A stretch of DNA of 63,230 nt, filler included, from Chiloscyllium plagiosum (taxonomy: Eukaryota): the NCBI RefSeq assembly GCF_004010195.1. It is 8 parts of 8 records of this genome, joined end to end, with 100 filler letters (N's around TTAATTAATTAA, not from the genome) between each part and the next. Parts side by side here need not be neighbours in the genome. Positions count along the whole stretch, not along the records: positions 36,053 to 50,413 come from NC_057717.1; 7 more parts are not named here. One strand, given 5' to 3'. Position 1 is the first letter of the stretch. Each line of letters begins with the position of its first letter. This document shows, piece by piece, positions 7,611-54,348 of this stretch. The notes below the pieces were generated by a model that saw only the letters and a list, made by a program, of their open reading frames with translations, was not told the origin of the DNA and did no database searches. Position numbers and translations under genes: made by a program.

Positions 7611-10460
7611 CTAATATAGCCCAGTTGTGGTTAAAAATGCAGAAGTTCCTTTCGCCAACTCTGACAAAGGTATCTTCCAGTAATCACGCATTACGTCCAA
7701 CTTGGTGATGTAACTGGCTTGTCCGACTTTCTCGATATAGTCCTCCAATCTAGGAATTTGATATGAGTCCGAATTTATAATGGCGTTGACCTTCTGATAA
7801 TCCACGCAGAGCTGTTGAGTCCCATCCGGATTGGGAACGAAGAAGATCAGTGAACCCCGTTCGCTCTGGCTTGGTTCGATGATGGCTTCATCAAGTAAGG
7901 CCTTTACCCCTTTCTGAACCTGTCTGGCTTTGAAAGGATTAAGCCGATAGAGGTGTTGTTTTATTGGAGTAGTTTTTCCTCTATCTACTTCATGTACAAT
8001 AGCATTAGTCCTCCCCATCTGATTCTTACATATGTCCGTGTATTGCAGTAACAAATCTTTCAACTTAATTCTATGCTCGTGAGACAGATAGCTTACTAAC
8101 TAACTCCACGCCTGAAGGACTTCTTCATGTTTTAATCTATTTTGAGGCACTTCAAAACCCATATCATCTGGATTTGATTCCTCTCTCTGGGGGTAGTAAC
8201 AAACACCTGTTTCTCAAATTCTTTCTCTCCAGGGTAATAGGGTTTAAACATGTTCACATGACATACCCAATACGTCTCTCTTTCTATCTGGCATCTTTAC
8301 TAAATAGTTCGCCTGAGTCAACTTTTTCTCAATTTGATAGGGACCACTAAACTTGGCTTTGAAGGGACCTCCTATGACTGGTTACATTATTAATACGTTT
8401 TCCCCTCAGGAAATCTTTCGAGTCTCAGAGCTTTTATTTGCCACCTGCTTCTTTCTAAACTGTGCCCTTTACAGGTGCTGTTTGCGTTACTCATCTAAAC
8501 TCAGATTAATCTCTCTGTCCCCTCTGATAAGTAATCTAAATGTGAGATCTCCGACTTTGGTCCGGCCAATTTTTATTTAAGGGCTTCTGACTTCATGACC
8601 GAATATTCACTCAAAGGGAGTAAACTGAGTCGATTCGTTTGGGGCACCACTAATGGGAAACAATAGCAATGGGATGCATTTATCCCAATCATTCGGGTAA
8701 TCCTCTCAACATGGTCTCCAAGGTCTGATGCCAACTTTCTAAAGCTCATTAGGATTCAGGATGATACGCACTGGATTTAAAGTGTTGTACACCTAAGCTA
8801 TCCATAACCTCCTTAATCAGCCTAGCAGTAAACCTTGACCCTTGGTACGACTGAATCTCTTTGGGTATACCATACCGTGTGAAGAAAGCTAATAACTCTT
8901 TTACTACCCTTTTTGCCTTCATACTCCATAATGCAATTGCCGCCAGTGATCTGGTAGACACATATAGTATAGTTAACATGTACTGGTCCACAGTATTAGT
9001 ACACGAGAGGGGACCTAGACAATCAATTATAACACACGTGAATGGTTCTTCAAGTGGGGAAATTGGCAACTAAGTTTCTGGTTTTATTACTGCCTGTGGT
9101 TTAAATACCATTTGGCATGGATGACACGTACGTCAAAATTTAACCACATCCTTGTGCGTTCCAGTCCAATAACAATGTTTTTGCACTTAGCCTGTATCTT
9201 TCGTACCCAGGTGACATCCTACGGGTAGTTCATGTGTTACCCATAACACCTCCTGTCTGTATACTACCGACAACACAATCTGATGCACTGTAGCCCATTC
9301 CCCTCTCCAATAACGAGAGGTCATGCTTTCAAAGTGAGAGGTGAACGCGTTGCCAGCAGAGGTGGTAGAGGCAGGCACGGTAGATTCATTTAAGATGCGT
9401 CTGGACATATGTATGAGTAGGTGGGGAGCAGAGGGATACTAATGTTTAGGAATTGACCGACAGGTTTAGACAGTACATTTGGATCGGCTCAGGCTTGGAG
9501 AGCCAAGGGGCCTGTTCCTGGGCTGTAAATTTTCTTTGTACTTTGTTCTTTGTTCCTTCATCATTCGCTTTAGTTTTCACTTTGTGCTGTGACGTGTGAT
9601 CGCGGGATTTGTTTACCACGCAGTCTGAGAAAATACCAGGATATTTCTGTTTTAACTCCTCAGTTTCTTGGTCTTCCGTGGGCTTCTCCACAACAAGGGG
9701 TGTCCCTCCCCCCTTGGGATCCTGCCAAATCATTCCCAAGAACAAACTGAATTCCTGGAACTGACACTCTGTCAATCAATCCCACTGCAACTTCCCCAGA
9801 CGTAAGCTGGCACTTTAACTTGACTTTACACAGGGTAACGCTAAGTTTCTGCCCCTCTATCCCACAAATTAACACACTGTCGGGGAACAGAGCAGAAATA
9901 GGACATATTCGCTCATTCCTTACTATCAGCGACTGTTCAGATCCTATAATTGCTGAAATTCTAACTTCTTGTCCTTCTTCCCCTGTGTTTTCTGCGTAAA
10001 CCTCAACACAGAGGCATATTCTTTGGAAAGATCAGGTACTACCTCTATACCCAGCCCCATCTAGACTGTGCACTCTCCTGTAGCTCCTCGGCTCTTCTTG
10101 GAGTCTCCTTTACTTCCTTCACTAATGCCACTGACTTAGCTTATTTTACCACATCTTTCCCACAGCGCCTTTCTTTAATGAGCAGCACTGTGTCTTCAGG
10201 TGTCCCACCTTACCACAGTGGCAACACCTGAGGCCTTTCACCTCCTTTCCAACCTCTGGTTAAAACATAGATTTAAACATGAAGAAGTCCTTCAGGCGTG
10301 GGGTTAGTTAGTAAGCTATCTGTCTCACGAGCATAGAATTCAGTTGAAAGATTTGTTACTGCAATACACAGACATACACAGACAATACACACATTTTTAT
10401 CCTGTGGTAAACGCTTTCCAGTGCTCTGTACTCTTGGTTTAGTAGTGTAGTATCTCACCT
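7611..10460 (-). mobile_element. Degenerate Gypsy LTR retrotransposon, Gmr1-like (gag-PR-IN-RT order)
   Basis: On the minus strand: gag knuckle CCHCGKVGH (~10230), protease region (~9660-9960), integrase (8749-9250; PFTCVIIDCLGPL...SAYHPES; GPY ~8340), then RT (PIKQHLYRLNP...CVDYQKVN...KLD, 7611-8063). Confidence 0.8.
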
Positions 10461-13623: not shown

Positions 13624-15240
13624 AATTTGTTTGCCTTTGAATGGGAGGATCCCAAGACAGGGCGGAAACAGCAATACCGATGGACTGTGCTCCCCCAGGG
13701 GTTTACGGAATCCCCGAATTTATTTGGACAGATGTTAGAACAAATATTGGAGAAATTTAGCAGCCCCAAGGGGACTATTCTGTTGCAGTATGTAGACGAC
13801 CTCTTAGTATCAGGAATAAGAAGAGAAAGAGTAGTAGAAGCAGCTAACAAATTATTGAATTTCCTGGGCCAGCAAGGGCTGTGAGTATCTAAAAACAAAT
13901 TACAATATGTGGAGCAGGAAGTAAAATACTTGGGACATTTAGTGAGTGAGGGTAAGCGAAAGATATGCCCGGAACGGATAGAGGGAATCGTGGGGATGCC
14001 ACTGCCCAGCACTAAACGGGAGTTACGCAAATGTTTGGGTCTAACGGGATATTGCAGATTGTGGATAGATTCCTATGCTCAGAAGACTAGGAAATTATAT
14101 CTTAAACTATTAGAGGGGGAGCCAAAATGTTTAAATTGGGATGATGAGGAAAAAGAACTAGTTGAGAATCTCAAAAGAGATTTGATTCATGCCCCCGTGT
14201 TTGCCTTACCTTCCCTAGATAAACCTTTCCACCTCTTTGCCACCGTAGATAAGGGAGCGGCTTTGGGAGTATTAACCCAGAGGTGGGGAGGGATGAAACA
14301 GCCAGTAGCATATCTTTCAAAGCTATTGGATCCAGTATGCCGAGGGTGGCCTGCGTGTGTGCAGGCCGTGGCTGCCACTGCACTGTTGGCAGAGGAAAGC
14401 AGAAAGCTTACGTTTTGGGGGAGCCCTAATAGTAAGCACCCCACACCAAGTGAGAACAATCTTAAACCAAAAAGCTGGGCGATGGTTGACAGACTCGCGG
14501 ATTCTGAAATATGAGGCGATATTAATAGAAAAGGATGATCTAGTGTTGGTCACTGACAATTGTTTAAATCCAGCTGCCTTTCTTTGGAAAGGGGAAGGAG
14601 ACTCTCCTTAGAATCCAGGGCACGACTGCCTTGACATTATTGAATACCAAACTAAGGTCCGCATGGACCTGAGAGATGTTCCACTTCATGCAGGGGCTAG
14701 ACTTTTTATAGACGGATCATCCCGGGTGACTGAAGGGAAAAGACATAATGGGTATGCAGTTGTAGATGGGAAAAAAGGTAGTGCGGTGGAGGCAGGAAGG
14801 TTGCCGAATGGGTGGTCAGCTCAGACCTGCGAACTCTATGCATTAGAGAGAGCCCTTAGGACATTAGAAAATAAAGAGGGAACAGTATACAATGACTCTA
14901 AATATGCATTTGGTGTTGTGCACACGTTCGGAAATCCTCTTTATCTTTCCTCAGAAAACAGGGTCTATTGGCACAGACTCTGCCCCTTGAATTCACCGTT
15001 CACCCCAACCGGCCAGGAGATTGGGTCTAAGTAAAATCATGGACAGAGACTAAATTGTAGCCGGACTGGGAAGGGCCGTACCAGACTCTTTTGACTCCCG
15101 AAACGGCAATAAGGACGGCGGAAAAAGGCTGGATTCATTACACTCGGATCAAAGGGCCTGTGGACCCTCCAGTTGAGGAAGAAGTCTGGACAGCCGAATC
15201 AACGCAAGACCCGCTAAAACTCAGACTAAAGAGACTTTGA
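13624..15240 (+). mobile_element. pol: Class I (gamma/epsilon-like) ERV pol, defective
   Basis: QYRWTVLPQGFTESP, LQYVDDLL, RNase H FIDGSS...SAQTCELYAL; stop at 13882, frameshift ~14420; integrase core absent (RNase H joins near 14935 to the IN C-terminus WEGPYQ...GWIHYTR). Confidence 0.9.
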
Positions 15241-34159: not shown

Positions 34160-36052
34160 GTAAGAGACACAGACTGAGAGAGCTACAAATCATTCTGAAC
34201 TCTGATGTGAATCAAACACACTAATTTATCAGGCGGAGTAAACAGCATGGTACAACTTCTCATTTCCCAACATGTCACGTATCTCATTTCAGTTTGAGTG
34301 TTACATTAGCATTGCTCATAATTCAACCTTTTGGCAAGTCAAAAAAGCATGTTTCCTCTCTGTTGAAGATAGATATATAGACAGTGAGCTTTGTTAAATA
34401 GTTTGTTGCCTGACCATGCTGGGAGAGGCATTCAGAGTGCTGAATCCTTGCCTGGTAGCTGCTTCGAGGATAGGTTTGGGGTGGAGGGCGATATTGGAGA
34501 GATATGTGATTGAAACATAGAAAATACTGAGAGACTGAGGTCGAGTGAATGTGGAATAGATGCTTTGACTGGTAGGCGAGACTAGGACCCAAGGGCACAG
34601 TCTCAGGGTCAAAGGGGCACGGTTTAGAACTGAGATGGGGAGGGATTTCTTCAGCCAGAGGGTAATGAGTCTGTGGAACATGTTGCTGCACAGGGCTGTG
34701 GAGACCAGGCCATTGTGTGTACTCAAGCCAGAGATAGATCGGCTCTTGTTTAGTACGGGGAGGAGGCAGGAGAATGGCTTTAGCCCGAAATGTCGATTTT
34801 TCTGCTCGTCGGATGCTGCCTCACCTGCTGTGATTTTCCAGCATCGTTCTGATCTAAACTCTGGATTGGCCGAACAGCCTTATTCTGATCCTCTATCAAA
34901 TTGACGTGGTGAAAATATGCAGTGACCCTTACTTGAAAATAAATCATAATGCGTTCAATGCTTCATTCCCTGCTCAGGAATGACCTGTTGGTTGGACATT
35001 GTACGACATCGATTTTCATCTGGTACTGAGCTCTTTAACTTCATTTATGGGATCAGACCACAGACCAAGTGGTTATCACATTTGATGAACTGGGATAAAC
35101 GTGATCTCACTGAGCTGCTTTAAGATGCTCTCTGTAATTAGTGGATAAGGCAGGAGAATAAATTCTGGTGGGAATACTACAATAGGGATGAATGAACTAG
35201 GAACTCAAGACAGGCTGATTTAGCCTGGTTTGGGGTGGCGCTGTTTACACAGTGAGTAGTGGATGTCTATAAAATTAGTGACATTTCCATCGCGTTTGTA
35301 GATTAATTTAAGACGCTTTTGTTTGTTTTTTTCTCTCCTGCTCTATGAAGAAATTTAAAAATGCAGCTTGGTAAATAAAGTGAAAGTACAGACCAGTCAT
35401 GAACTAACTGAATGGAGGGAAAGATTTAAGGAGATGGGTGTCCTTCCCGCTATCCAATGCTGTACTCAATGTCTTGTTTTCAGATCTATTCCAAACACAG
35501 CCCAAGAGGAACAATAACATAAATTAGAGAATGACATCACACCAATAACGCAAAGTATTTTTGATCACGTTAAATATAATGAACAGAATTTCCATGGCTG
35601 TTCACCACTCCTGTAACACTTTAGAACTCTGCAAAAAGAATAATTATCATTTATTATAATCTGTCCAAAATTTGGGATGTGATTTGGCAGTCAGTGTGAC
35701 CAGCAGCACTTGCACTTAAAGGTTATGAACATGGAAATGAAATCATTATATTCAGATTACTCTTGTCACAAGTATCAATAGATGGTCTTAAGTGAGTGAC
35801 AAACTCCGAAAGAAAGATAATTCCATGGGTGACATGATGGTATCTTCGATGATTTTACTTTTTTCACAGGTTTCACTTGTTACAAAGCCAGTGCTCTTTA
35901 GGAATAATTACACAGGGTGTGTTATAGGTAATCACAAATACTTTCACAGATCNNNNNNNNNNNNNNNNNNNNNNNNNNNNNNNNNNNNNNNNNNNNTTAA
36001 TTAATTAANNNNNNNNNNNNNNNNNNNNNNNNNNNNNNNNNNNNNNNNNNNN

Positions 36053-36269
36053 GTCAAATCCAAAACGCTCACCATCCATTGGAATGCTTCCACATGGAAC
36101 TCTGTGGGTTCGATGGTTACTGAGGCAATAGACTCTGACGGGGCATACAGCATCATCAGCCACATAAGAGTGCCGACGGAAGCTTGGAACCATGATCCTG
36201 TCTGCAGTTGCTCAGCTGAAATCAACTCAAAAGAAATTCTCATCTCTGAATGTGTTTCACAAAAGAAAG
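36053..36269 (+). CDS. Partial Ig C1-set exon of an uncharacterised IgSF receptor
   Basis: Open frame VKSKTLTIHWNAS...DSDGAYSIISHIRVPTEAWNHDPVCSCSAE...SQKK; phase-1 GTAACG donor; 5' part lost in the gap. Confidence 0.75.
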
Positions 36270-37029
36270 GTAACGATTAAATGTCACTTCAATTTTTGTT
36301 GTAAGGTCGAACTATAGCTGCATTATTAGCAATACGAAATGTTATATTCCAAAAGCTGCCTTGTTTAATTATCTTACAACTTGTAACTTTCATTCACAAA
36401 TACTTCTGATGTTTAGCTTTCTATATCATTGACATTTGTTTGCGCTTGACATTCTTCTGTAGTGGAGGATATGAATTAATTTGAAATTTTGCCGACTGAG
36501 GTTGGGAAATGCAATTTTCATTTTGTGACTTTAGTCTTACTGCCTTTGAATAGTATCTGTATTTCATGGCATTTGCAAAACATTTGAAAATACTATTTAG
36601 GTCAGTAGAGAACAAAGAACAAAGAAAATTACAGTGCAGGAACAGTCCCTTCAGTCCTCTAGATCCTCTGTCTCAACTTGTCGCCTGTTTTCTAAGAATC
36701 TATATCCCTCTGCTCTCTGCCCAATGATTTATAGCAGCACGGGCCTGGGCTCAATTCCAGCTTTGGTGATTGCCTGCGTGGAATTTGAATATTCTCCCCG
36801 TGTCTGTATGGGTTTCCTCCAGGTGCTCTGGTTTCCTCCCACAATCCGAAGATGTGCTGGTTAGGTGAATTAGTTATGATAAATTGTCCATAATGTTCAG
36901 TGATGTGTAAATTGGGGAAATTGGTCAGGGGCAAATATAAGGTAGGGAATGGGCCTGGTGGGTTACTCTTTGGAGCGTTAGTGTGCACTTGTGGTCCTGA
37001 AAGGACTGTTTCCACACTGTACTGATTCT

Positions 37030-38730
37030 GACATATTTTAAATGACTCGAATATGCCTGCCTCTACCACCTCCGCTGGAAATACGTTGTCTCCATCACCC
37101 TCTGCATAAACAACTTCCTATGCATTACTCCCTGAAACATTTCTCCTCTCACCTTGAACTCGTGATCCCCATTACTTTTGACCATACTTTTAGAAGAAGC
37201 GTCTTGCTATCCACCCTGTCTACACCTCTCAAGATTTTGTAGACCTCAATCAAGCCACCTTCAACCTCCTTATTTCTAGTGAAAGAAATCCTGATCTTCT
37301 CTTCGCAACCAGTGCCCTCCATACCAGGCAACATGCTTGAAACTCCTCTGCACCCTCCCCAAAGCATCCACATCCTTTTGACAATGTGGTGAACAGAATT
37401 TATGCAGTATTCCAAATGTGGCCGAACTAAGTCTTATACAACTGTAACATGAGCTGCCAACTCTTGTATTCAATACACCGATTGATGAAGAAAAGCATGC
37501 CTATTGCCTTCTTGACCACTATTACGACTTGCATTGCCACCTTCAGGATACAATGGACCTGAACACCCAAATCTATCTGTGCATCAATTTTTCCCAGTAC
37601 CTTTCCATTTAACATGTAGTTCGCTCTTGAATTTGACTTTCCAAAATGCATCACTTCGTATTTGCCCAAAGTGAACACCATCTGCCATTTCTCTGCCAAA
37701 CTCTCCACTCTATCTCTATTCTGCTGTATCTCTGACAGTCGCCTTCACTATGTACTACTTCACCAACTTTAATGTCATCTGCTCACTTGCTAATGAGAAC
37801 ACCTATACCTTCCTCCAGATCACTTTTGTATATCACAAACAACAGTGATCCCAGGATAGATCACTGTGGAAAAGCATTGGTCACAGTTCTCCATTTTGAG
37901 AAACTCCTTTCCACTAATACTCTCTGTCTCCTGTTGCCCATCGAGCTAGTACACCCTGGACCCCATGCGACTTCACTTTCTTCATCAGCCTACCATGGGA
38001 AACCTGAACAAATACCTTACTTCACTTCATGTATAGGACATCCAAAGGCCTTCCGTCATCAATCAATTTTGTTACTTCCTCAAACAGTTCTACTAAGTTG
38101 GCAAGATTTGACATTCCTTGAACAAAACCATGTAGCCTATCACTGAGAAGCAAGTTTTCTTCCAAATGGGAATAAATCCTATCCCTCAGTATCTTCTCCA
38201 GCAACTTCCTTACCACTGACGTCAGGATCACTGGCCTATAATTACCTGGGCTATCCCTGCTACTCTTCCAAAACAAGAGGACAAAATTAGTAATTGTCTA
38301 GTCTTCTGGTACAATACCTGTTCTAGGATGCTGCAAGGATATCTGTTAAGGCCCCGGATACTTCCTCTCTCGATTCCCTCAGTAACCTGCAATAGGTCCC
38401 ATCCAGACCTGGAGACTTGTCCACTATAATACCTTTTAGAAAACCTAACACCTCCTACCTCCTTATGCTGACTTGACCTAGATTAATCAAGCATCTATCC
38501 TTAACCTCAACATCTGTAAAGACCCTCTCGTCGGTGAATATCAATGCAAAGTCCTCGTTAGAATATGACCCATTTTCTCTGACTCCACACATAACTTTCC
38601 TCCTTTATCCTTGAATGTGCCAACCCTTTGTCTAGTTACCCTCTTGCTCCTCATATATGAATAAAAGGCTTTGGGATTTTCCTTAACCCAGTTGCTAACG
38701 ATATTTCATGACACCTTTGAGTCCTCTTTA
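37030..38730 (-). mobile_element. CR1 LINE ORF2 fragment
   Basis: SPGNYRPVILTSVVRKLLEKILRDRI, LAEKWQMVF, GLIEVYKILRG. Confidence 0.85.
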
Positions 38731-39589
38731 TACCTCATAGTTAAATGTAGGATTTCCCGTATGCCGCCCAAACCGACTAGGTGCAATTATTTAGCTCAGT
38801 AGGTAAATGTAGGTTTTCCCGTATCCCTCTCAAATGCAATATGTATATTTTCATATCGTTTCCCCTGAATTTTCACAAGGGATTATTATACAAGTATTCC
38901 TTCAGCCACAATCTCTTTAGATACATCACATTCCTTATTTTCATCGTTATCGTGATTTGTATATGTATAGCTCCAGCTATGCACAAAATGGTTCACCCCA
39001 AATCTCAAATGATGTATTGGTAAATCCATTATCATTGTCGCTATTAGGTTATTTTTGCATTAGCATTGGGAAATTCTTATCTAATTTTATTTGATTAAAG
39101 CATGAAGATCTCTGTCAAAACAACACTTTTCAAATGCAAGAAGTTCATGTTTTCCCAATCTTTTATGACTGATAAAACCATAAATTCTAGGGTCATTCTC
39201 GAAAATTGTTATTTTACCTTCCACAGAATGCATCAAACATTTGCTAAACCAAGTACAGAAATATCCATGTTACTCCACGTTTTGACACATCAATGTTAAT
39301 TTGGCGGACTCCACTTCTTGAAATGCGATGCTATCCATCATATGATTACCTTTCTTCTTTGACTTTATTTGACAATAATGCCCACATTAATGCAATCATT
39401 TGTTAACATATATAGGCAAATAAGCTTTATTGTACTCACTTAGATGATGTATTTCGAGGTAGAATGCAAACTTTTTAATATATCCAAACCAAAATTAAAC
39501 GAGGAATGAGGAAAAACAAACAAACATGATGAAGTAACCATTATAAGCATTCAGTGATTACTGCCAAGTGGTTTACAATTCTAAATTGG

Positions 39590-40990
39590 AACAAAGAACC
39601 ATCCAGGGCATAAGCAAGTCCTTCGGCCCTCTAAACCTGTGCCAACACATTTTGCCCTCCAATGCAAAAACTGTCTTCACTTCCACAATCTGTATCCCTC
39701 TATTCCCCTCTTATACATGAATTCATCTAGGTACTTCGTGTATGCTGGTATTGTGTCTGCTTACACCACCTCCTCTGGCAGCGTGTTACAGACACTTGCC
39801 ACCCTTTCTGTGAAAGACATGCCTCGGCAAACTCCTTTAAACTTCACCCACATCCCCTGACCTTGAATCTGTGTTACCTAGTAATTACCATCGACACTCT
39901 TGGGACAGCCCTTGCACTTGACATCTCATCAGTGCCATTCGCAACCTTTTAAACTTTTGTCAGTTCGCCCTTCAACCTACTGTGTTCCACTGAAAACAAA
40001 TCCAGTCTATCTAACCCTTCTTCATAGCTAAAATACCCCATCCCAGGCAACATGCTGGTAAATATTTGCTGTAGCCCTTCCAAAGCATCTGCATTCTTCT
40101 GGTTGTGTGGCGACCAGAGCTCTATGCTATATTCCAAGCGTGGCTTCATAAAGTTTTTATAATATTGCAACATAACTTGCCCAACCTGATACTTAGTACA
40201 CGTTCCAATAAAGGCAAGCATAGACCTTTCTTACTACTTTATCTACCTGTGCTGCCACCTTCAATGATTTGTGAATCTCCACGCCTAGTTCCCTCAGCAT
40301 GTCAATACTTTAAGGGTACTGCCATTCCGTGTATAATTTCCACCTGTACATGACCTTCCAAAATGCATCAACTCATATTTGTAACAATTAAACTCCATCT
40401 GCTATTTTTGTCCATGCCTCCAACTGTTCTATAGCCTGCTCTATCCTCTGACAATCCTCCCCACTATCCACAATTTCAGACGTGTTTGTATCGTTCACAA
40501 ACTAATTAATTATACCAGCCACGTTTTCGTCCAAATCATCTATGTACATCACGAACAGCAGAGGTCCCAGCGCTGAAACCTGTGGAACAGCACGAGTCAC
40601 AGACTTCCATTCCGAAAAACGTCCTTCCACAGCTACACTCTGTCTTCTAATACGATGTCAGTTCTGCAGCATCTTGCCAGCCCACCCCGATAACATGCGA
40701 CTCTACCTTATGCACCAATCTGTCATGAGGGATCTTGTTGAAGGCTTCACTGAAGTCCATGCAGACAACATCAACCAGTGTTCTCTCATCATCCATCTTT
40801 GTCACCTGCTCAAAAAGCTCGATCAACTTAGCAAGGCCCGCCTTCCCCCGCACAAAACATTGCTGTCTATTGCTAATAAGTTGATTGCCTTCTAAATGCA
40901 TATAGATCGTGCTCATGAGAACCTTTTGCAATAATTTGTCTATCAGCTACTTGAGGCTCACAGGCCTATAATTTCCTGGTAGCTGTGAGA
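39590..40990 (-). mobile_element. CR1 LINE ORF2 fragment
   Basis: VDVVCMDFSEAFNKIPHDRLVHK; KPRLEYSIELWSP. Confidence 0.8.
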
Positions 40991-41765
40991 ATTATTAATT
41001 GCGGAGGTGCAGCTTCTTAACGATAACGAGCACCAAGTTGTGAAACTGAAGCCATCTTCAATGGTATGAATGTAGAACAGTACAGCGCTATAATAAGCCC
41101 TTTGATCCAATATATATGTGTAAACATGATACCTTTCTAACCTAATCTCATCTACCTGTATATTGCCCATATCCCTCCATTCCCAGCTTAATCATGTGTC
41201 TGTCTACTTTTCTCTTAAGCTTTGGTGTTGTCTGCTTATACCACCTCCCCTGACAAAGCATTCCAGGCACTCACCATCGTCTCTGTCAAACCAAAATTCT
41301 TTGCCCATCTCGTTCATCTCCTTTAAACTTTACCTTATTGACGAGTAAAACAAATGCATAGTTAACATTTTTAAGTCAGTGATATCTGTTTGAAGTTCCA
41401 ACTTGCAATGATATCTTGTAGCACATGTCAATGTATACAAACAATAGGGTATATTCTGAAAAGGACACGAAGGATTATCTCTGAGAAGTAAAATGTGAGG
41501 CCGAAAGTATAGAACTATAAGTGCACATTTTTGCGTTTCGAGAAATGTTGACCGTTATCCACTCCAGGAGGCAAAGTGGAATTTGGATTTGACACAAATA
41601 ATGCTTGTAACTGAGGATAAAATCCGAGCAGGGAATAAAATTAGGATCTGTGTGGCAAGGAATCAGCAACACATGGAGAATATTACAAATTCATTCTCTG
41701 CTGTACACTTCAACGATTTCAGTGTTTTTTTATCTTACTACGTTTGCATAATTTAGTTGTCTCTG

Positions 41766-41768
41766 ACA

Positions 41769-41800
<32 letters not shown>

Positions 41801-41830
41801 TCTCACAGTCTCACAGTCTATCTCACAGTC
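41766..41830. repeat. (CA)n microsatellite and CACAGTCT repeats
   Basis: Direct reading. Confidence 0.9.
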
Positions 41831-41869
41831 ACTTTCCAGCATTCTACTTGTTTATTCCTTTTCCAGCAG

Positions 41870-41905
41870 GCTACGAAATTACTCCCCATCGCCAGCTACG
41901 TTTCG
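41870..41905 (+). CDS. Possible 36-nt stalk exon (GYEITPHRQLRF)
   Basis: Pyrimidine tract + CAG acceptor, weak GTGTGT donor, phase 1-1, 81-nt intron to the TM exon. Confidence 0.4.
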
Positions 41906-41986
41906 GTGTGTCTCCATCTGTTTTCTACAACTGCGTATTGGTGCAGATTATATACTTTTAAGAGCTCTTGATTTTTTTTTCTTCAG

Positions 41987-42100
41987 AGGCTCCGCATAGC
42001 ATTTGCCTTTTAAATCTTTATGGGAGTGCATTAGCGATTATTTTCCTCCTTGCTATATTGACTATTATCACGGGATGGAGATACAGGAATCGCCATTCAG
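41987..42100 (+). CDS. Transmembrane exon of the IgSF receptor
   Basis: Poly-T CTTCAG acceptor and GTATGG donor, phase 1-1; EAPHSICLLNLYGSALAIIFLLAILTIITGWRYRNRHS. Confidence 0.8.
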
Positions 42101-42240
42101 GTATGGAATATTTTTTGGTGCTGTGAATGTATTCTGCTCTATATCCTTGTCTTTGTGTTATTGTGCTATAAAATTCTTGCACATAAATTAACCTGATAGA
42201 AGTCATATTTTATGGACTATTACGTTTCTCTTTATATCAG

Positions 42241-42278
42241 GAAACTGGAAAACTGCTGTGCTGAGACAAACACAAGAG
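42241..42278 (+). CDS. Cytoplasmic exon 1 (GNWKTAVLRQTQE)
   Basis: TATCAG acceptor and GTAAGG donor, phase 1 to 0. Confidence 0.7.
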
Positions 42279-42473
42279 GTAAGGGCTTCAAGTTCTTCTT
42301 TCTAATGACCTTAATTTTGTTTATTATTCATTCACTGGAAAAGGGAGTCGTTGGCTAGCCCAATATTTATTATCCAGAGGCCAGTTAAAAGCCACGCACA
42401 TTGTTGTAAGTCTGGAGTCACATATAAACCAGATCAGGTAAGGATGGATGTTTTCAATTCTAAAGGGCGTTAT

Positions 42474-43200
42474 ATTTTGATTTGATTCGATTTAGTACTG
42501 TCACTTGTACCGAGATAAAGTGAAAAATATTCTTTTAAACACTCTCAAGACAAATCATACTTTTCAGAAGTATATTAAGATAACAGAACAGAATTCAGAA
42601 TATAATATTTCAGCTACAGAGAAGGTGCAGAGACAGATCGATTCTAATATATGCGACGTCTGTTCATAAGTCTGATAATAGAGAAGAAGAGGCTGTTCTT
42701 AAGTCGGTTGGTAACTGTTAAAACGTTTTTGCATTTCTGTCCATGTGAAAAAGCGCAAGAGTAAAATGGTGGGGGTGGGGGTTCTTTGATTTTGTTGGCT
42801 CCTTTACCGAGGCAACGGGGACTACATATGAGGTCAATGGAAGGAAGACTGTTTTTCATAATGAACTCGCTCCGTTCACAATTCTATGTCACTCTTTGTG
42901 TTCTTGGATAAAGCAACTGACATGCCAAGCATCGTAACAGAATGTTCTCCATGGTGCATTTAGAATGTTCTCCATGGTACATTTACAAAAGTGGGTAAAG
43001 GTCATTGCGGACATGCCGAGTATCCTTAGCCTTGTGAGGAAATACAGGCATTTGGTGAGCTTTCTTGACTGTAGAGATGTAACAAGACTGCTGGTGAGAG
43101 TTATTCACAGTAACTAGAATCTCTCGAACACCTCCATCTGAGCAACATTGAGACGGACAGTGGCGTGTTTCCCACTTCTTGAAGTGAACCAAGGGGTTAT
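42474..43200 (-). mobile_element. Rex1/Babar-like LINE 3' end
   Basis: (TTTGA)n-type tail, GTCACTTGTACCGAGATAAAGTGAAAA 3' UTR, TNRLKNS and TVKKAHQ remnants. Confidence 0.6.
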
Positions 43201-46200
43201 TTGTCCAACAATTGGGTTGGATACATTGTCATCATTTCAGAGTTTTATTGAATTCACATCCCACAATCTGACATGGGGGTGGGGTTGGAATTTGAACTCA
43301 GTCAGGACATTACATTTGTTTCCAGAGTAATAGTCGAGTGACAATACCATCATGCCATCACCTCACTCAAACTGGTGAGATGTCTTTTATTTGGCTTTAT
43401 CAATTAATGTTTAATGTCTAAGGCTCCAGAAATCTAGAGGCATATTAAAAGTTAACACTGGAAAGCAGCCTTTTTTTTTTTGCTATTTTTTCCAATTTCT
43501 TCAAGCGTTGTGAGAATCTCTTGCTTAGTCACCATATAGAATATAATAGAATGAAACCGAAATGTATTTTCACGTGTATTTTTATATGAAAATATGGTGA
43601 AAATGCTTATAAGTCTCCCCAACATGGTATTTATGTCACTGACAGAAGTCATACAAAATAAGAAAAGCGTAAAATTATGCCAAAGTTCATCACAGTTTAG
43701 TTAACGGCTCTTAGGCTGGGGAGAAGCCAATTAAGGAACAATGGAATCTGAAGTCGCAAGCGTGAGGAGACTAAAATTCCAGCACATGATCACCATGCTG
43801 GGCCACTGAAATACTGGGCTGGAAGCCTCCACCAAAGGAGACTGCCAGGCCAGCCCTTCACTGCAAATCCTGGACGAGACCGCCACTCCTGGACGAGACT
43901 GCCTGTCATGCTGTTGGAATATCTGGACGCCAAAGACAAAGACCACCTCCACAGAGGGACGAGACGTCCACGCCAGGACATCCTGTTCCTTGGATACTGC
44001 CTGACCTGCTGTGCTTTTCCATCAACACATTTTCAGCTCATTTTTTTTTTATCGTCTTGCACTCTTAGCCATTTTAGAGGAACCGGTTCTTTATGGTTCA
44101 GGAGCCTATGACATGGAATGCTTTGATAGTGTCCAGCTCTTCGTATATTGTTAGAATTTTGGCATTTAAAAATTTGTGCCTCGTGAATCGTGCACAGGCT
44201 TTTCTGAGAAGGTCGAGTAAAACTCAATGCACGATTCCAGGTTTTGGATTTGATCTTTTAGCCACAGTAAATATATGACAAGTGCAGCCTATTTTCTTGT
44301 TATTGATAAATCCCCAGAATGGTGATAGTGGGTGTTCAGTGATGGTAATGGTATGAATCTCAAGACTGTATTTTTCCTTCTGGAGATGATAAATGCCAGA
44401 CAGTTGTAGCATGAATGTTACTTGTCAATTTTATCAAGGACTTGTTGCGCTTGGTCATGGACAATTTCAGTGTTTTAGGAGTCGCAAATTTGCTGAATCT
44501 TGTTATGTCATGAGCAAATATTCCAACTTCTAACTTCATAATGGTCACAAAGTCATGAAGAAGTAGCTGAAGACGGTGGGCCAAGGATACTGCACTGTAA
44601 TGCTCAGTCAGAAATGTTCGAGTGGCATGGTGACTCAGTGATTAGCAGAGCTGCCTCACTGTACCAGGTACTAGGGTTAGACTTTCACTTGTCCGCTCCA
44701 CCCTCCACTCTGACCTATCACCATCACCCCCACCCCCCTGCATCTACCTATCACCTTCCAAGGTACATTCAACCCAGCCTCACATCCCCCACTTATTTCT
44801 CAGCCCTCTTGCCTACCCGCTCACATTCCTGATGAAGGGATGATGTGCAAAACCTGACTCTCCAGCTCCTCAGCTGATGCCCGATCTGCTGTTCTTTTCT
44901 ACTCTTTCGACTCTTTCCTCCCATAGTGCAAAGATGCGCAATTTAGTTTCATTGGCCGTGATAAGTTACCCATAGTTAAGGAACGTATGGATTACATGAC
45001 TTAGCCATGAGAAAAGCACAGTTTGGATGCTATTCTCTTTGGAGGGTTGGTAGGGACACATGAGTGAAATGTAGGGAGTTTATGTTCTGGAGCTAAGGTA
45101 ACTGATAAATACGATTAAACCACATGTAGTCCAGGATAACTTGTAAATTGATGCAAAAGAAGGGCCACAGGTTGTAGGTGTGGCTGAAGGGCCGTGACAG
45201 TTGTGTGTCATATCAATCAGTTTGTCTGTCTTCTTGTTTGTTATGTATACATAAACGATGTAAATGAGAATCTGAATGGGGTTCAGAGAATGAAAGTTAA
45301 CTTTGTGGAAGACACAAAGATTGGTCAGGTGGTTGACAGTGAGGAGGAATCAGTTAGGTTACAGGAGGATGTAAGCAAGCGTAAATCATTGCAGCTGGAA
45401 TATAACTCTGATGAATGTGAGGTGATATACTTTGGTAGGAGTAACAGAACAAGGGAGTACTGAGTCATGCTGAAATCAGAGAAGAAAGGTCTTGCGATGC
45501 TTCTCCACAGATCCTTGAAGCTGGCACAACAGGCTAATAAGTAAGTTTTGAAATTGTGCAGACTCTTGCCCTTATCAGTCATGACATAGATTGAGAGATC
45601 GGGGATATTTTTGAAGGTGTACAAAACTTTGGTTAGAGCCCAGCTTGGACATTGTGTGCAGTTCTTTTTAATAGGAAGGATGTGATTGCAGTGGAAAATG
45701 TGCAGTTGGGAAGCCCCAAGATGTTCCCACGTCTTGAACATTTAGCTATGACTAGGCAATGAATAGACTTGTTTTCTGTTTTGCAACAGATGACTTGAGG
45801 GGAAACCTGGTAGTGGTATACCTGATTATGAGGTGCATAGATAGGATGGATAGAAGTCAGACTTTCTCCTGAGTTGGAGAGTCAATATCAAAAGGGTGCA
45901 CTTTCCATGAAAGACAGGAGATATATAAGGAATTTTGGATGGGGGTGCAACACCCAGAGAGCATTATGGGGGGGGGGGGGGGTGTAGGGAATGTTGAGGC
46001 AGGTAAACGTTAAAGTTTTAAAAGTACTTGAACTCATTACATCCAAGGTTATCAGCCAGGTGGGAGTAAATAAGAACTTGTATAGTTTTTATGATACAAA
46101 TTTGATGGGTTATAAAGGCCTTCCCTGTACTGTATGCCTTTAGGATTCTGTGAACAAAATGACGCACGTTTGGCAGTGGAAATCTAAAAATAATTCACCT

Positions 46201-46355
46201 TCGTTTTTATAATGTTGCCTTTTCATTTGAAACAGTTGCATATATGCAGATTAAAGAATCAGTTGTTATCTAATTGAATAGATGTTCGGAACATTAAATG
46301 AACGAATACAACCTATATATTTCCACAAGCACAATGATCTTTTTTCCTTCCTCAG

Positions 46356-46400
46356 ACTGTCTATGCTGATTTGGCTTTTACAGCGGATCCGACATTCTAA
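46356..46400 (+). CDS. Terminal cytoplasmic exon with ITIM/ITSM-like TVYADL
   Basis: TTTTTCCTTCCTCAG acceptor, phase 0; TVYADLAFTADPTF*. Confidence 0.65.
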   Translation, partial: TVYADLAFTADPTF

Positions 46401-47199
46401 TGGAAAAAAAGAAGGAAGTATTTGTATGCATATTTAAATGAAAAAAGACTTTTACTAAACCCATGCCAAAATTCATGTATTTGTTCCATAGCCCTGTATC
46501 ATACTTTTATTCAACATGTCGTCCAATTAATTTTTATGTGTGATTTTATTTTCTGTCACGATAAGCGTGTCAAGAATTGAGCTCCAAGTCTTTACCACGA
46601 TCACATGATATGCTTTACTTTTGCACCGTCCAAAGCATTCTATCTATTCCGAAGTTTGTGCTTACTGTCTCGACCCTTCTGGCATTTTAAATACTTTGAT
46701 CAAACTGAGAACATCACAACACAGTATAATGGCATGCATGCCAATTAGCTAGCTACTCACCTTCGATTCTCTCAAGGCGTACAAGCACATAAAATGTTTC
46801 TTCATGCAATAACTATTTTCGTCTTCCTACCTGCAAATACGGAAGGTTCCTCTGCTCCACACCAAGGCCAATCGACTTCATTTTTTTGTAAAAGCTCATC
46901 TGACCTTGAATCCACTTCCTTTCTTCATACCAATGACATTTGAACCTATTGCTAATCAGTGTGCCTTCTAAATCAACCTCATATATATTCAATGATCCAA
47001 ACTCAAGTTATTTTTATGATAACGAGTGCGAGGCATAAACATCAAGTTGCAGCATATAGGTAATAGTCGTAGGTAATATGATTTTTTGTTTTTTTATTTC
47101 TAACCCTTGCTTAATATTGAAGTGCCATCTGGCGTTTTAATCACTATTGACCTGGCAGATTGCTTTCAATCATCCATTGTAATCCACATAGACATCAGT

Positions 47200-47680
47200 T
47201 CATACCATTCTTCAATTCTCTTGAGCACACTCTGTTTCACTTCCTGGAATGCAAACTATCCGGGGAAGAATGCCTCATCTTCTGCCATGGGACCCTTCAA
47301 CCACATGACATCAATATCACCTTCACTTGTTTCCAAATCTCCCCTCTTGCACCTCATCGCAGATCCAAACCTCCAACTCTGGACTGTGCTCTTGACCTGT
47401 CCTACCTGTCGATCTTTCTCCCCCCCAACCGGTTCATCCCGACTGACCTCCACCTATATCCATCTATCACCTTCCCAACTAACGTATCCCATCCACACTC
47501 CAAGCAACCCCTCCCCCATTTATCCCTTATCACCCTTCCACCTCCATATTTCTGATGAAGGGGTATTGCCCGAAACGCCGATTCTGCAGCTCCCCGGATG
47601 CTGCCTGACTTGCTCTGCTTTTCCAGTGCCACCCTTTTCGTCTCTGACACTCAATCATCTGCAGTCCACACTTTCTCCTA
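47200..47680 (+). mobile_element. Penelope-like element 3' end with terminal repeat
   Basis: ECKLSGEECLIFCHGTLQPHDINI (end of GIY-YIG region); CTGATGAAGGGGTATTGCCCGAAAC at 47552. Confidence 0.7.
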
Positions 47681-47916
47681 ATTTCTGGGTTCATGTAAAC
47701 TTTTCAGTTTCTATCTTTCAGACACTCTGTAACTTCCACTCTATATTATGACTCAAATTACCAATGTCAGGGATCATTCCCATTCCACCCAGAATAGGCA
47801 TTCTTATTCCTTTTTATTTGAACCTAGATAAGTAATGCATATTTCTAATAGCAGGTAATGGAGCCTTAGGCCTGAGGACCCAAATGCTTCTAAGGCTGAT
47901 GAGATTTAGTTTGCAA

Positions 47917-49365
47917 TGTGTTATGGGCTAGGCCAGACCTTTCAAGACATTCTTGAGAAGACAACCCAGATCTTAGCTTTGCAATTTGCTTCGGTAAGTG
48001 TACAGTGGAAGTTACCCAGTGTACGCTAGCTAGGTTGACTACCAGGGTTTGAAACTGACAAAAGATGTATGCACAAAACTACACAATGAAACAAAAAGAA
48101 CAGAATGAAGAGCTCTTACAGAACTCAGTCGATCCAAACGAGACTTAATTATGCTGTTCCAAATATGCACAACAGTCCCAAAAAGCAAACCCCCTTAAAG
48201 CACTTTTTTAGGTTATCAAATGTTTTTTCCTTGCTATCCACAGAAACCTCTTCCGCCTTTTTAACTAGTTGATGAGTGAAGCAGCCACATGGCTAAAGGT
48301 TGGCACAAACCTTTGGTAAAATTCACTCAACCCCAGAAACTGTAGGGTTTTTTTTTTGTTTACGGTGTGGGAAATTCCCCAATTACTTTCGCTTTCACAT
48401 CCCATGGGACCATTCGTCTTTGTCCAGGAATGGCCCAGAAATTCACTTTTAACTAGGTTTACCATCAAGTCTGCCTTTTGCACTCGATCAAACAAGTCTG
48501 ATAAATGCTGTGAATGCTTCTTCCATGAGTGACTAAAATCACCAAGTCATCAATATACACCACACAGTTGGTTAATCCGGCAAATACCTTATTAGTCAGT
48601 CTCTGAAATGTGGGAGGAGCATTTTTCATACGAAATAGGATGGCTTTGAACTGATATAGTCCATTTGGCGTTACGAAAGCCGAAATTGCCTTTGCTCTCT
48701 CTGGCAGCGATACTTGCCAGTAGCGTCTGAACAAGTCCAATTTAGAAATATAAGCTGTTTGTCCCACTTTTTTAAACACAGCCCTCCAACTGTAGAATTG
48801 GATATGCATCAGTCTTTGCAACAGTGTTTACTTTGTGATCGTCCACACAGAACTGTTGGGTACCATGTGGCTTTGGCACCATGACTGTGGGTGAGCTCCA
48901 GTCACTAACTCATTTCGATTGTGTCGTCTTAGAGCACGTGCTCTATCTCCTTCAGAACATGTGCCAGCTTTAGAGAGTTATGCCTGTAAGGATGTCGCTT
49001 AATCGGAACAGCATCTCCGATATCTACATCATGCACAGTTGGGTTACAATTTCTCCGTTTATTTCCGTATATCTTCCCATGTAATAGTAATAACTGTTTC
49101 AGGTCATTTCGATTTTCTTGTGGAAGGTAACTCAATAATGTATCCCAATTTTTGACAACTATCTCATTGTCCAATTTGACTTGAGGAATGTCCAATTCAG
49201 AATCTGAACTTGGTTCTTCCTTCTGTGTTGTAATCATGAACACCTTCGACTCTTGCTTTCCTTCCCTATCAAAATCTCTTTTGAGCATATTCACTTGACA
49301 TACTCTGTGAGATTTCTTCCTATCTGGAGTAATGATCAACTAGTTTACCTCACTCAATTCCAGAA
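47917..49365 (-). mobile_element. Gypsy (Gmr1-like) fragment: IN C-terminus, RT and probable LTR
   Basis: TPDRKKSHRVCQVNMLK upstream of PIKRHPYR, SAFVTPNGLYQF, VVYIDDLV. Confidence 0.75.
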
Positions 49366-49404
49366 AATGTTTGGCGACTGAAAGAGCCATTGATATCCCA
49401 GGTT

Positions 49405-50413
49405 TTAGAACATAGAACATAGAAAAATACAGCGCAGTACAGGCCCTTTGGCCCTCGATGTTACACCGATCCAAGCCCACCTAACCTACACTAGCCCACT
49501 ATCCTCCATATGCCTATCCAATGCCCGTTTAAATGCCAATAAAGAGGGAGAGTCCACCATTGCTACTGGCAGGGCATTCCATGAACTCACAACTCGCTGA
49601 GTAAAGAATCCACCCCTAACGTCTGTCCTATACCTACCACCCCTTAATTTAAAGCTATGCCTCCTCGTAATAGCTGACTCCATACGTGGAAAAAGGTTCT
49701 CATGGTCAACCCTATCTAAACCCCTAACCATCTTGTACACCTCTATCAAGTCACCCCTAAACCTTCTTTTCTCCAATGAAAACAGCCCCAAGTGCCTCAG
49801 CCTTTCCTCATACGATCTTCCTACCATGTCAGGCAATATCCTTAAGGAATTCAATAAGGTTTGTGAGGCACTACCTGCCCTTCTCTGCACCCGTTCCAGT
49901 GCCTCCACATCCTTCCTATAGTATGGCGACTAAAACTGCATACAATACTCCAGATGCGGCCGCACCAGAGTCTTATACAACTGCAACATGACCTCAGGGC
50001 TCCGGAACTCAATTCCTCTACCAATAAAAGACAGTACGCCATATGCCTCCTTCACCACACTATTTACCTGGGTGGCAACTTTCAGAGATCTGTGTACATG
50101 GACACCAAGATCCCTCTGCTCATCCACACTACCAAGTATCCGACCATTAGCCCAGTACCCCATCTTTTTGTTACTCTTACCAAAGTGAATCACCTCACAC
50201 TTAGCTACATTGAATTCCATTTGCCACCTTTCTGCCCAGCTCTGCAGCTTCTCTATATCCTGCTGTAACCTGCCACATCCTCCCTCACTGTCAACAACTC
50301 CTCCGACTTTCGTATCATCCGCAAACTTGCTCACCCAACCTTCTAACCCCTCTTCCAGGTCATTTATAAAAATGACAAACAGCAATGGTCCCAAAACAGA
50401 TCCGTGCGGAACA
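49405..50413 (-). mobile_element. Well-preserved CR1 3' portion
   Basis: GPLLFVIFINDL, SKFADDTK, LVRPHLEYC; TATGTTCT tail. Confidence 0.9.
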
Positions 50414-51216: not shown

Positions 51217-52665
51217 TTAACAGGTTGTAAGATTACCCATGTCCGATTGCTGCTGGTCCTGCCCCTCTGGGGTAGCTGTCTGCATCCCCGTGCAGTACGC
51301 AAACTGCTGGACCCTCGCGGGGCTGAGGTAGCTGTCCAGTTCCTCACTCGGCCCATTTGCCCGCTCCGGTGTCATCGGGCCGAGACCAGGGTCCACGCTG
51401 TCTGTTTCTATATCTGACAGCGGGGCTGTCAGAGGGTCGCTGCTCCCAGTGACCTGGAGCTGTGTGGCGGTGGGGCCCTCCTGGCTTTCACCTGGTGGGG
51501 GGTGGTGGTTTCCCATTTCCTCAGGAGGCTCGTCCCTTGGTTGGCAGTTGCCGCTCTCCTTTCTCCTCGCAGCGCTCTGCCTCTTCTTTTGGTGACGACC
51601 CTCCTTTCTTCCGTCCTCACCCTCCGAAGAGCTGTCCATGTCTTCCACCTGCAGCTGCCTTTTCCCCTTTTTCTGGGAGGTCTTGGTGACCGGGTGGGTT
51701 TTCCTCTTCCTGTTTTTCACCACGGTCCATTCCTCTGCCTCCTTCTTTCCCTTCTCCGCCTCCTCCTCCTGTCCTGTCGGAGCTTCGCTCGGCAGCTGTA
51801 CCTCTCCAGTAGCTGTCTGCTCTGCTCCGGCCTGTCCTTCCTGTTGCGTGCCTCCTGACACCATTCCTTTGCCGGTTTGCGGTGCCTTGCCGTCCTTTTT
51901 TGGCCCGCCTCCGGCCATCTGCGCGTAGGTGGCGGCCCCTCGTCTTGGGCAGGCCCTGTACACGTGGCCCGCCTCCCCGCACAGATTGCAGTTCTTTTCC
52001 TCCTTGCACTCTTTGGTCGGGTGGCCCTCCTTCTTGCAATTGCGACAGATCGTGACCTTGCAGTCCGCCGCCATGTGGCCTGACCTCCCACAGGTTCGGC
52101 ACACTTTCGGCTGCCCTGCATTAGTCAGGTACCCTCTGCTCCCTCCGATAGCAAAGCTGGAGGGTGGGTGGAGGATATTCCCGCTGGCATCGACCCTCAG
52201 GGTTACCTTGACCTGTCGTTTGCTGGTCCAGACCCCGAAAGGGTCAACCACGTCGGTGCTTTGACCCTCGACCTGCACATATCTTCCCAGGAACGTCAGG
52301 ACATCAGTTGCTGGCACGTAGGGGTTGTACATGTGGATTGTAACAACCCGGCTCCTCTGTGCAGGAAGCACACACAACGGGACCGCCGACAAGATGGAGA
52401 ACAGCGGCTCCCCTTCCTTTTCTTTGAAGACCTTCAGGAGCTGCTCACATTGCTTCACGCTCCCGAAGGTGACGTCGAAGTAGCCTGCCCCAGGGAAATC
52501 CTGCAGGCAGTACATGTCTGCTGCGGCAAATCCACAGCACTCGAACAACACCTTCTTGATGAACACCGTCCGATCGACTGGTGTACGCTCCTCCACCTTC
52601 TTGACAGACACCCGGACGGTGTTTCGAACCCCCTGCCCAGGGCTGCGCGCAGCTGTTGAGGCCAT
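51217..52665 (-). CDS. Tx1/Keno-type L1-clade ORF1p with CCHC zinc knuckles
   Basis: Open from MASTAARSPGQG; CRTCGRSGHMAADC, CRNCKKEGHPTKEC, CNLCGEAGHVYRAC. Confidence 0.85.
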   Translation of the reverse strand: MASTAARSPGQGVRNTVRVSVKKVEERTPVDRTVFIKKVLFECCGFAAADMYCLQDFPGAGYFDVTFGSVKQCEQLLKVFKEKEGEPLFSILSAVPLCVLPAQRSRVVTIHMYNPYVPATDVLTFLGRYVQVEGQSTDVVDPFGVWTSKRQVKVTLRVDASGNILHPPSSFAIGGSRGYLTNAGQPKVCRTCGRSGHMAADCKVTICRNCKKEGHPTKECKEEKNCNLCGEAGHVYRACPRRGAATYAQMAGGGPKKDGKAPQTGKGMVSGGTQQEGQAGAEQTATGEVQLPSEAPTGQEEEAEKGKKEAEEWTVVKNRKRKTHPVTKTSQKKGKRQLQVEDMDSSSEGEDGRKEGRHQKKRQSAARRKESGNCQPRDEPPEEMGNHHPPPGESQEGPTATQLQVTGSSDPLTAPLSDIETDSVDPGLGPMTPERANGPSEELDSYLSPARVQQFAYCTGMQTATPEGQDQQQSDMGNLTTC

Positions 52666-52823
52666 AGCTCTGAGGTTGGCTGGTCCCTGAATTGGCGTTA
52701 GGCCGAAGCCAGCATGAAGATCCACCAATAGCAGGTCAGCACAACCAGACGATCCTCCAACGTCCAATCACGATCCAGCAATGATCTCCACTAGCTCTGA
52801 TGACTCGCAACTCGACCCCTGTC

Positions 52824-52961: not shown

Positions 52962-53612
52962 TGGGAGCTATTGTGTAGGTTCCACTTGGTGAACCTGCAG
53001 AAACAAAGTAAATGTCCATTAGAATGGGGAATAATCCATTCTCAAAGGATGACAACACAGTGTGAGGGGATGGAGACTGTGTCAGAAATCCTTATTCCCA
53101 CACTCCCCTCCATCCTTACACTTTATGGAGATTTTCAACATCTCTTCCATTGCATCAATATTCAATCAGTGAGGAATGGGGTGTGTGCAGGGGTTTAAGA
53201 CAGGGAACAATACGTGTTTATACGTGTGTATCTGTGTGTGGGAATTCAATCAGTTCCATTCCCCACAGTGCCCTGTACTCCCAGTACTGGAGATTCCCCC
53301 ACACCCACTCTGTCTCCTCAGTTCCACATTCCCCTCTCTTGGATTCTTACCTCTCCAGGGCTTTTTCCAGATGATTATTCCAAATATTGCAGCCATTGCA
53401 GAGACTAATCCAATCAAAAGTACACAATGGGAACGTTCCACACTGTTTTGTTGGATTTCTGAAACACAATGTAATAAATCAACATTGTCGCTGTTCCATT
53501 TCCAGTCTCAGTTCTGTGTTGATTGGGACAATTGGGACAATTGTCACAGATCCTGCCCATTGGGAACTGATGGGATTGGTTGACACATTGTATTGGATTC
53601 TCCAAATGCCTG

Positions 53613-53673
<61 letters not shown>

Positions 53674-54348
53674 GTCCCTTACCCCACTGATAGAGCTTGC
53701 CCTCTGCCAGGCTGCTGTGTTCAATGTGACAGGAGTATTGATCCTCATCCCCAGCATTGATCTCAATCTCTTTCTGGATCTGATGGGTCCCATCGTGGTT
53801 CGGTCGTACCCCCGAGGATTGGGTCTCAGACATGACCTCTCCATTCCTTAGCCAGGTCACCTCGATGTCTACAGGATAAAACCCAGTGACCAGGCAGGAG
53901 AGAGTGAGCGGCTTGTCCTGACCATTGGGCTCCCTCCTGGAGATGAACACTTCAGGCTGAACTGTGATGGGAAAGGGTGAAAACACAAACAATAGACAGA
54001 CACTGAATGGAATGGGAGAGCGGTTTCATAGATCAGTGAGGTTAGATCAGAACATGGAGCAAAACAGAAATACATACCTTTCCTTTTGAAATAATCTTTT
54101 CCAGCTTCCAGATATCTCTTTAACATTTCTACAGTTACTTCTTCCAGGTGTCTTTTCCAGTAATTGTTCCAGGAATCATCAGAATTCCATTTCTCTTTAG
54201 TCATCACTGCAATGGGATTGTATGCGATCTCATTCTGTCTGGGTCTAAACTGATAAAATCTTCTCCATCAAATCCAAATCTCATTGATCTCTTAATGCTG
54301 CCGTCATCACTGACCTCAACAGTAGTTTCTGTTGAAAAATGTGAATTC
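52962..54348 (-). pseudogene. Divergent MHC class I heavy chain: alpha2 54078-54348 (frameshifted), alpha3 53683-53961, TM 53351-53458, cytoplasmic 52962-52994
   Basis: All exons phase 1 with GT-AG. alpha3 LSCLVTGFYPVDIEVTWLRNG...PNHDGTHQ...YSCHIEHSSL; alpha2 GIHIFQ, FGFDGEDFISLD, TKEKWN, LKRYLEAGK in three frames; 33-nt Tyr-containing exon GSPSGTYTIAP. No alpha1 found in the contig. Confidence 0.88.
53613..53670. repeat. (CT)n/(CA)n microsatellite in the class I intron
   Basis: Direct reading. Confidence 0.9.

Follow-up and report, generated by a model that had tools for sequence, protein, structure and literature searches.

PRARP are non-rearranging receptors that carry a joined VJ domain, one C1 domain (degenerate in birds), a transmembrane (TM) segment and one tail motif resembling an immunoreceptor tyrosine-based inhibitory or switch motif (ITIM or ITSM). 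They form two linked subfamilies in bony fish, amphibians, reptiles and birds, are expressed in lymphocytes, and assemble as disulfide-linked homodimers or heterodimers. Fu et al. (2019; J Immunol 202:1992, PMID 30770416) reportedly described PRARP1 and PRARP2, and Ohta et al. (2019) are said to have described the VJC1 genes of Xenopus; these papers or their supplements may already mention shark homologues. Here, we analyzed a stretch of 63,230 nucleotides from the shark Chiloscyllium plagiosum (assembly GCF_004010195.1; the whole stretch, 8 parts joined end to end, is called the window) and one gene in it, LOC122552429. This gene encodes a germline-fixed leader-VJ-C1-TM protein with a TxYxxL tail. 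In our reading, which we hold to be probable, the protein inhibits leukocytes as a surface receptor and is a PRARP family member from a shark. Like PRARP and VJC1, it has a joined VJ without recombination signal sequences (RSS), a single C1, a TM segment and one ITIM- or ITSM-like tail motif. Unlike them, it comes from a cartilaginous fish, where one subfamily has 13 copies or remnants on a single sequence, C8, including a C1-less copy; a soluble isoform is predicted, and a second subfamily is interleaved with immunoglobulin (Ig) light-chain clusters on another sequence, C39. Coordinates outside the window refer to the genome labelled G000, of which C8, C39, C1, C51 and C9 are sequences.

Other receptors share parts of this design. 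SIRP-alpha and NITR also combine a joined-VJ ligand-binding domain with an inhibitory-type tail in clustered multigene families, and by analogy the window receptor probably works as they do. Their layouts, which we take to be V-C1-C1 for SIRP and V-I for NITR, differ from the window gene with its one C1 and one tyrosine motif. Identity with SIRP was rejected because there is no V-C1-C1 arrangement and the domains are not SIRP-type by Pfam or in trees, where a SIRP-like row lies apart from the family C1. Ig light chains and T-cell receptor (TCR) chains have the same V-C1 layout and fold, an FGxG J motif and a split leader, whereas the window gene has no RSS, no V-J split and no charged CD3-type TM residue, carries a tyrosine tail, and has a C1 outside their clades. 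It was therefore not assigned to them, having no split V and J with RSS, no isotype match and no charged TM residue. UrIg and UrIg2, described in PMC12227049, which predicts a two-domain VJ-C1 precursor, are elasmobranch genes with a single-exon VJ, a split leader and C1 domains that do not rearrange, as in the window gene. However, the secreted UrIg has three C1 domains and UrIg2 at least nine, against one C1 plus a tyrosine tail in the window gene, to which a UrIg-like row is 25% identical in V and 21% in C1. We rejected identity with either because a single C1 follows VJ, against three or more IgH-like ones. The words PRARP, ITIM and VJC1 do not occur in the accessible part of PMC12227049, and in the portion of its supplements available the family was not found by 6 identifiers, nor is any listed gene recognisably a member. 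PRARP is named as a joined-VJ gene, with one mention each, in the available text of PMC10751288 and PMC11599192. No paper on shark members of this family was found in the literature searched, which lacked most subscription journals.

The initial annotation assembled four exons of this gene from the window (Table 1). Joined, they splice in frame with 0 stops, 3 GT donors and 3 AG acceptors, and the product runs from a C1-like stretch through the TM segment, uncharged and followed by WRYRNR as had been described, to a tail ending in TVYADLAFTADPTF. The joined exons correspond to the C-terminal 137 residues of RefSeq XP_043551093.1 (LOC122552429 isoform X1, Chiloscyllium plagiosum, 294 aa), annotated as "uncharacterized". 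RefSeq isoform X2 omits the TM exon, and its product would be soluble. Logan contigs of sequencing runs X1 and X2 (one related organism, two studies, RNA only by the tool's guess) omit all three introns at exact GT..AG sites, with joints at 36269>41987, 42100>42241 and 42278>46356. This organism shows 9 differences from the window gene in about 214 C1 bases. A single contig of run X2 (1103 nt) spans the C1, TM and terminal exons and has 610 bases 5' of its aligned part, which are not aligned but compatible with the 474 coding bases of the RefSeq model; transcript sequence extends past the stop to at least 46492. Read support covers the three 3' introns, the leader, VJ and C1 splices being predicted. 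The joints were seen in two of four runs; the other two, X7 and X8 (single-cell RNA, labelled with the same species as the DNA data sets), gave no exon coverage in the roughly 2% and 6% of each run sampled, X8 without any aligned sequence, and are uninformative on expression. None of the data sets listed as containing the gene is recorded as RNA. The exon join goes beyond chance because RefSeq identity, intron-skipping contigs and the same layout in homologues coincide. We confirmed that the window gene is real, intact and spliced, and that its exons were correctly reconstructed.

Some details had to be revised. The C1 exon does not start at position 36053, which comes directly after an artificial spacer; in the genome this exon begins 86-89 bases earlier. 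The C1 acceptor lies outside the window because the piece begins mid-exon. This piece (36053-50413) matches G000:C8:74117424-74131784 at 14,361 of 14,361 bases, and the DNA 5' of the spacer does not match the genomic neighbourhood of the gene on C8. An acceptor-like sequence at about 35940-35952, just before the spacer, belongs to another piece and was discarded. An optional 36-nt exon had also been proposed. It keeps the frame, but it is unused in the contigs of runs X1 and X2, is missing from both RefSeq isoforms and is without a paralogous counterpart across the 1.2 Mb of C8 searched, and we reject it as unsupported. The gene is indeed absent from the open reading frame track, as had been stressed; this merely reflects its short exons, and it was already a RefSeq model. 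What is already known is a gene modelled in RefSeq without function, and a PRARP kind that has been described.

Upstream of the window, the predicted V-C1-TM-cytoplasmic layout was borne out. One germline VJ exon lies immediately 5' of C1, separated by an intron of 87-90 bases, and a leader exon precedes it, so that the complete product reads leader-VJ-C1-TM-TVYADL. The leader is split, as in antigen receptors. One exon holds YYC...FGNGS and the V exon ends in YYCAARKSYGTAFIFGNGSTLHI; the germline gene therefore already carries a joined J. All 9 copy windows scanned lacked an RSS-like site, as did all 8 V windows when the setting was loosened. On C39 the scan did detect 12- and 23-spacer sites, at V and J segments of Ig light chains.

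Pfam gave 52.5 bits for V-set and 29.8 bits for C1-set on the full protein. With a hidden Markov model check of domain class, the full second exon matched C1-set alone (32.6 bits, cut-off 21), the fragment within the window scoring 18.2 bits, below the cut-off. A tetraspanin match on the TM segment was below cut-off and disregarded. In most family C1 domains the F-strand YxC is replaced by CxC (residues 208-210 of P0009), an extra shared cysteine, while lungfish and turtle second-subfamily rows retain FxC. The structure model is modest (predicted local distance difference test 66.7, predicted template modelling score 0.40); in fold it comes closest to Ig light chains and TCR chains, with 17-25% identity.

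In the C1 tree, a branch supported at 99/94 separates 35 family rows from 25 Ig, TCR, UrIg, SIRP and MHC (major histocompatibility complex) rows. An earlier tree of 45 family rows against 23 Ig heavy- and light-chain, TCR beta, UrIg-like and SIRP-like rows gave the same split at 99/95; four MHC-like rows were then added and 12 rows dropped for speed. Both trees lack tapasin, B7H6, beta-2-microglobulin and the TCR alpha, gamma and delta C domains. PDB matches supplied the names of the UrIg-like and SIRP-like rows, and the other outgroup labels are our assumption from characteristic motifs. The trees have about 100 columns and are unrooted. The C1 of the family thus falls apart from the Ig, TCR, SIRP and UrIg rows, and the claim that the gene is germline-encoded and antigen-receptor-like holds: it combines a joined VJ without RSS and a C1-set domain, yet stands outside these four groups.

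These results bear on a possible origin in which V and J of a rearranging Ig light-chain or TCR locus became joined in the germline and TM and tail exons were captured later. Germline-joined light chains occur in sharks, joined and split clusters adjoin family members on C39, the best PDB sequence matches of the V domain are light chains, and the leader is split in antigen-receptor style. On the other hand, the C1 shares 18-29% identity with the light-chain C domains tested and is placed outside them by the tree, the loop from the second Cys to the J Phe/Met is an identical 11 residues in 8 of 8 open V exons on C8, and the joined form recurs in protein models from sharks to birds. We regard such an origin as very improbable, although the trees, because they are unrooted, leave room for a very early derivation.

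In the preferred reading, a germline inhibitory receptor, the stalk cysteine, conserved across homologues, would let the protein form dimers, either homodimers or pairs with the linked second subfamily. A cell-surface ligand would be bound by the VJ domain and, by analogy with established ITIM-receptor biology, clustering would lead to phosphorylation of Tyr283 by a Src-family kinase. With both its tails, a dimer could then recruit the tandem-SH2 phosphatases SHP-1 or SHP-2 and damp activating signals. Diversity of recognition would come from paralogues, whose V domains are 54-59% identical to that of the window gene, rather than from rearrangement, and the TM-skipped isoform may act as a soluble decoy. 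A different use of the same tail, as a switch or adaptor site (SAP/EAT-2 type) or a trafficking signal in a co-stimulatory or non-signalling receptor, seems unlikely. Thr at Y-2, which we take to be an ITSM hallmark, would suit it, as would the lone tyrosine motif and the strict TxYxx[VI] found in 6 of 32 family proteins, all tetrapod. Leu at Y+3 speaks against it, as do the strict ITIMs at the same terminal position in 7 of 32 homologues and the uncharged TM. Overall, 25 of the 32 proteins examined have an xxYxx[ILV] tail motif, the strict forms included, and 27 have a TM without charged residue.

To find relatives, a profile of 14 shark rows was run against 1.84 billion representatives, giving 3,967 matches at E<=0.001, mostly generic Ig proteins; 150 were listed, and source names were looked up for 20 two-domain matches. 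The names point to sharks, rays, skate, sawshark, lungfish, coelacanth, caecilian, newt and turtles, with V only in chimaera. With a second profile, built from 14 non-shark rows, 161 matches were obtained, and the 120 listed include turtles, alligators, lizards, sturgeons, paddlefish and birds. Shark, ray, sturgeon, lungfish, coelacanth, amphibian, reptile and bird homologues have the same layout as the window gene. The family is therefore not the poorly described, shark-only system initially suggested, since relatives reach turtles, lizards and birds and the features match those of PRARP. A turkey homologue has a V-set and no C1-set match in Pfam, in agreement with the degenerate avian C1 of PRARP. 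Turtle, lizard and bird homologues, all without a PRARP label, fall together with the window gene in the C1 trees. PRARP-family membership is likely.

The family comprises two subfamilies, adjacent on C39 of this genome. Both lie on contigs of equal size in snapping turtle and have consecutive accessions in manta ray; as expected, this pairing fits an old linked pair. The shark cluster might nevertheless be a separate cartilaginous-fish VJ-C1 lineage, paralogous and not orthologous to PRARP. In the V tree, cartilaginous-fish sequences (97/96) and tetrapod sequences (97/88) each form a clade and Ig/TCR rows group at 92/93, the backbone joining these three being unresolved; the C1 tree pairs the shark subfamilies with each other at weak support, not each with its tetrapod match; and marker searches gave no synteny. 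Yet the best listed single-stretch two-domain matches beyond cartilaginous fish are lungfish, shark second-subfamily and turtle proteins of shared layout, shark and tetrapod members share a C1 clade, and the subfamilies look linked in turtle and ray. A separate lineage appears quite unlikely to us.

Membership in PRARP as an inhibitory receptor also has points that weigh against it. TVYADL is a TxYxxL hybrid, neither a strict ITIM nor a strict ITSM, and it is the only tyrosine motif of the tail. We infer ligand binding, immune-cell role and signalling from sequence and likeness. The family rows in the trees were chosen and cut with a shark-built profile, which favours their grouping, and the V-tree backbone (41/82, bootstrap unsettled) does not resolve how shark and tetrapod members relate. 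No PRARP-named sequence was among the matches listed, including 120 of the 161. A lizard homologue is named APH-1A by NCBI; no synteny with the tetrapod locus was seen, APH1 matches lying on C1 and C51 and those of PRPF3 on C51, away from the C8 and C39 loci. Nicastrin and COPA marker matches fall on small contigs of G000, and no flanking gene was recognised on either side of the cluster, over about 150 kb to the left and 265 kb to the right (crude exon finder, 35 of 238 candidates examined by eye).

We searched 1.2 Mb of C8 (73.42-74.62 Mb, including 54 kb of N). The 13 copies or remnants form a 0.8-Mb cluster from 73.577 to 74.35 Mb, and 7 have open V and C1 exons with a TxYxxL terminal exon. 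Among these, the TM exon of copy 73823 was not found and copy 73688 has an altered J motif. The others are one copy without C1 and five that are broken or partial. C1 domains of paralogues are 37-48% identical to that of the window gene, and a charged residue is absent from every TM seen in the cluster. The C1-less paralogue has VJ and TM with no intervening C1 exon, and its tail reads GLYAQL; the epaulette shark model P0011 has the same arrangement. No second-subfamily gene or light-chain cluster was found in the 1.2 Mb.

On C39, Ig light-chain clusters, which we take to be sigma-2 from sequence resemblance, alternate with two second-subfamily VJ-C1 genes and one broken copy of the first subfamily. 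Some of these clusters are split and carry 12/23 RSS; others are joined in the germline. The placement of this block may be an assembly matter because it lies <160 kb from the end of C39. The sawfish family member XP_051901910.1 is one accession from XP_051901911, named IgLS2 in the accessible part of PMC12227049. A large V-exon cluster on C9 contains many exons with a joined GxGT without Phe, resembling C39 light-chain V; no C1 was found within 1.5 kb of these exons. Other features of the window are given in Table 1.

Table 1. Positions of the exons, related copies and other features (window positions unless a G000 sequence is named)
Feature	Position	Strand	Evidence or remark
Leader exon, 43 bases	G000:C8:74116254-74116296		outside window
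V exon (VJ), 339 bases	G000:C8:74116909-74117247		outside window
C1-set exon, full start	from G000:C8:74117335		5' part outside window
Artificial spacer between pieces, 100 bases (44 N, 12 bases, 44 N)	35953-36052	.	window letters
C1-set exon, 3' part (217 of ~305 bases)	36053-36269	+	joined translation, C1-set score, donor used in transcript contigs
Optional 36-nt exon	41870-41905	+	frame fits, use unsupported
Stalk and TM exon	41987-42100	+	Cys236 in stalk, uncharged TM, basic stop-transfer WRYRNR; RefSeq, transcript contigs
First cytoplasmic exon, 38 bases	42241-42278	+	joined translation, RefSeq, transcript contigs
Terminal coding exon, TVYADL (Tyr283) and stop	46356-46400	+	joined translation, RefSeq, transcript contigs
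Seven open copies	C8, kb: 73577, 73621, 73688, 73749, 73823, 73965, and window gene		
C1-less paralogue	G000:C8:74,248,657-74,257,421	-	VJ and TM, no C1 exon between them
Second-subfamily VJ-C1 genes	27,759,920 and 27,856,869, within G000:C39:27,700,000-27,871,000		
Broken first-subfamily copy	C39: 27,816,702	-	
V-exon cluster	G000:C9:2.0-4.3 Mb		
Strong C1-set exon	53417-54025	-	64.1 bits; other piece (G000:C87483), unrelated to gene by position
516-codon open frame	51220-52767	-	ZCCHC3-type RNA-binding domains and zinc knuckle; probably retroelement ORF1
Reverse-transcriptase/RNase H retroelement fragment	13885-14511	+	
Reverse-transcriptase/RNase H retroelement fragment	7614-8099	-	

According to the available text of PMC12227049, intact single-exon VJ genes are the sought relics of the receptor that preceded RAG. 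A further proposal, which we consider doubtful, is that the two linked subfamilies together make up a two-chain VJ-C1 receptor encoded in the germline, the living sister of the gene split by RAG, that has stood beside sigma-2-type clusters since before sharks and rays separated. If true, this would be a third antigen-receptor-precursor locus, besides MHC (UrIg) and the antigen receptor (AgR) complex (UrIg2), and the receptor would have exactly the VJ-C1 precursor form predicted in that portion of PMC12227049. The presence of a VJ-C1 membrane family in sharks through to birds places its layout in the ancestor of jawed vertebrates. For sharks, it supplies a candidate family of germline inhibitory receptors, probably filling the role of SIRP, NITR or KIR.

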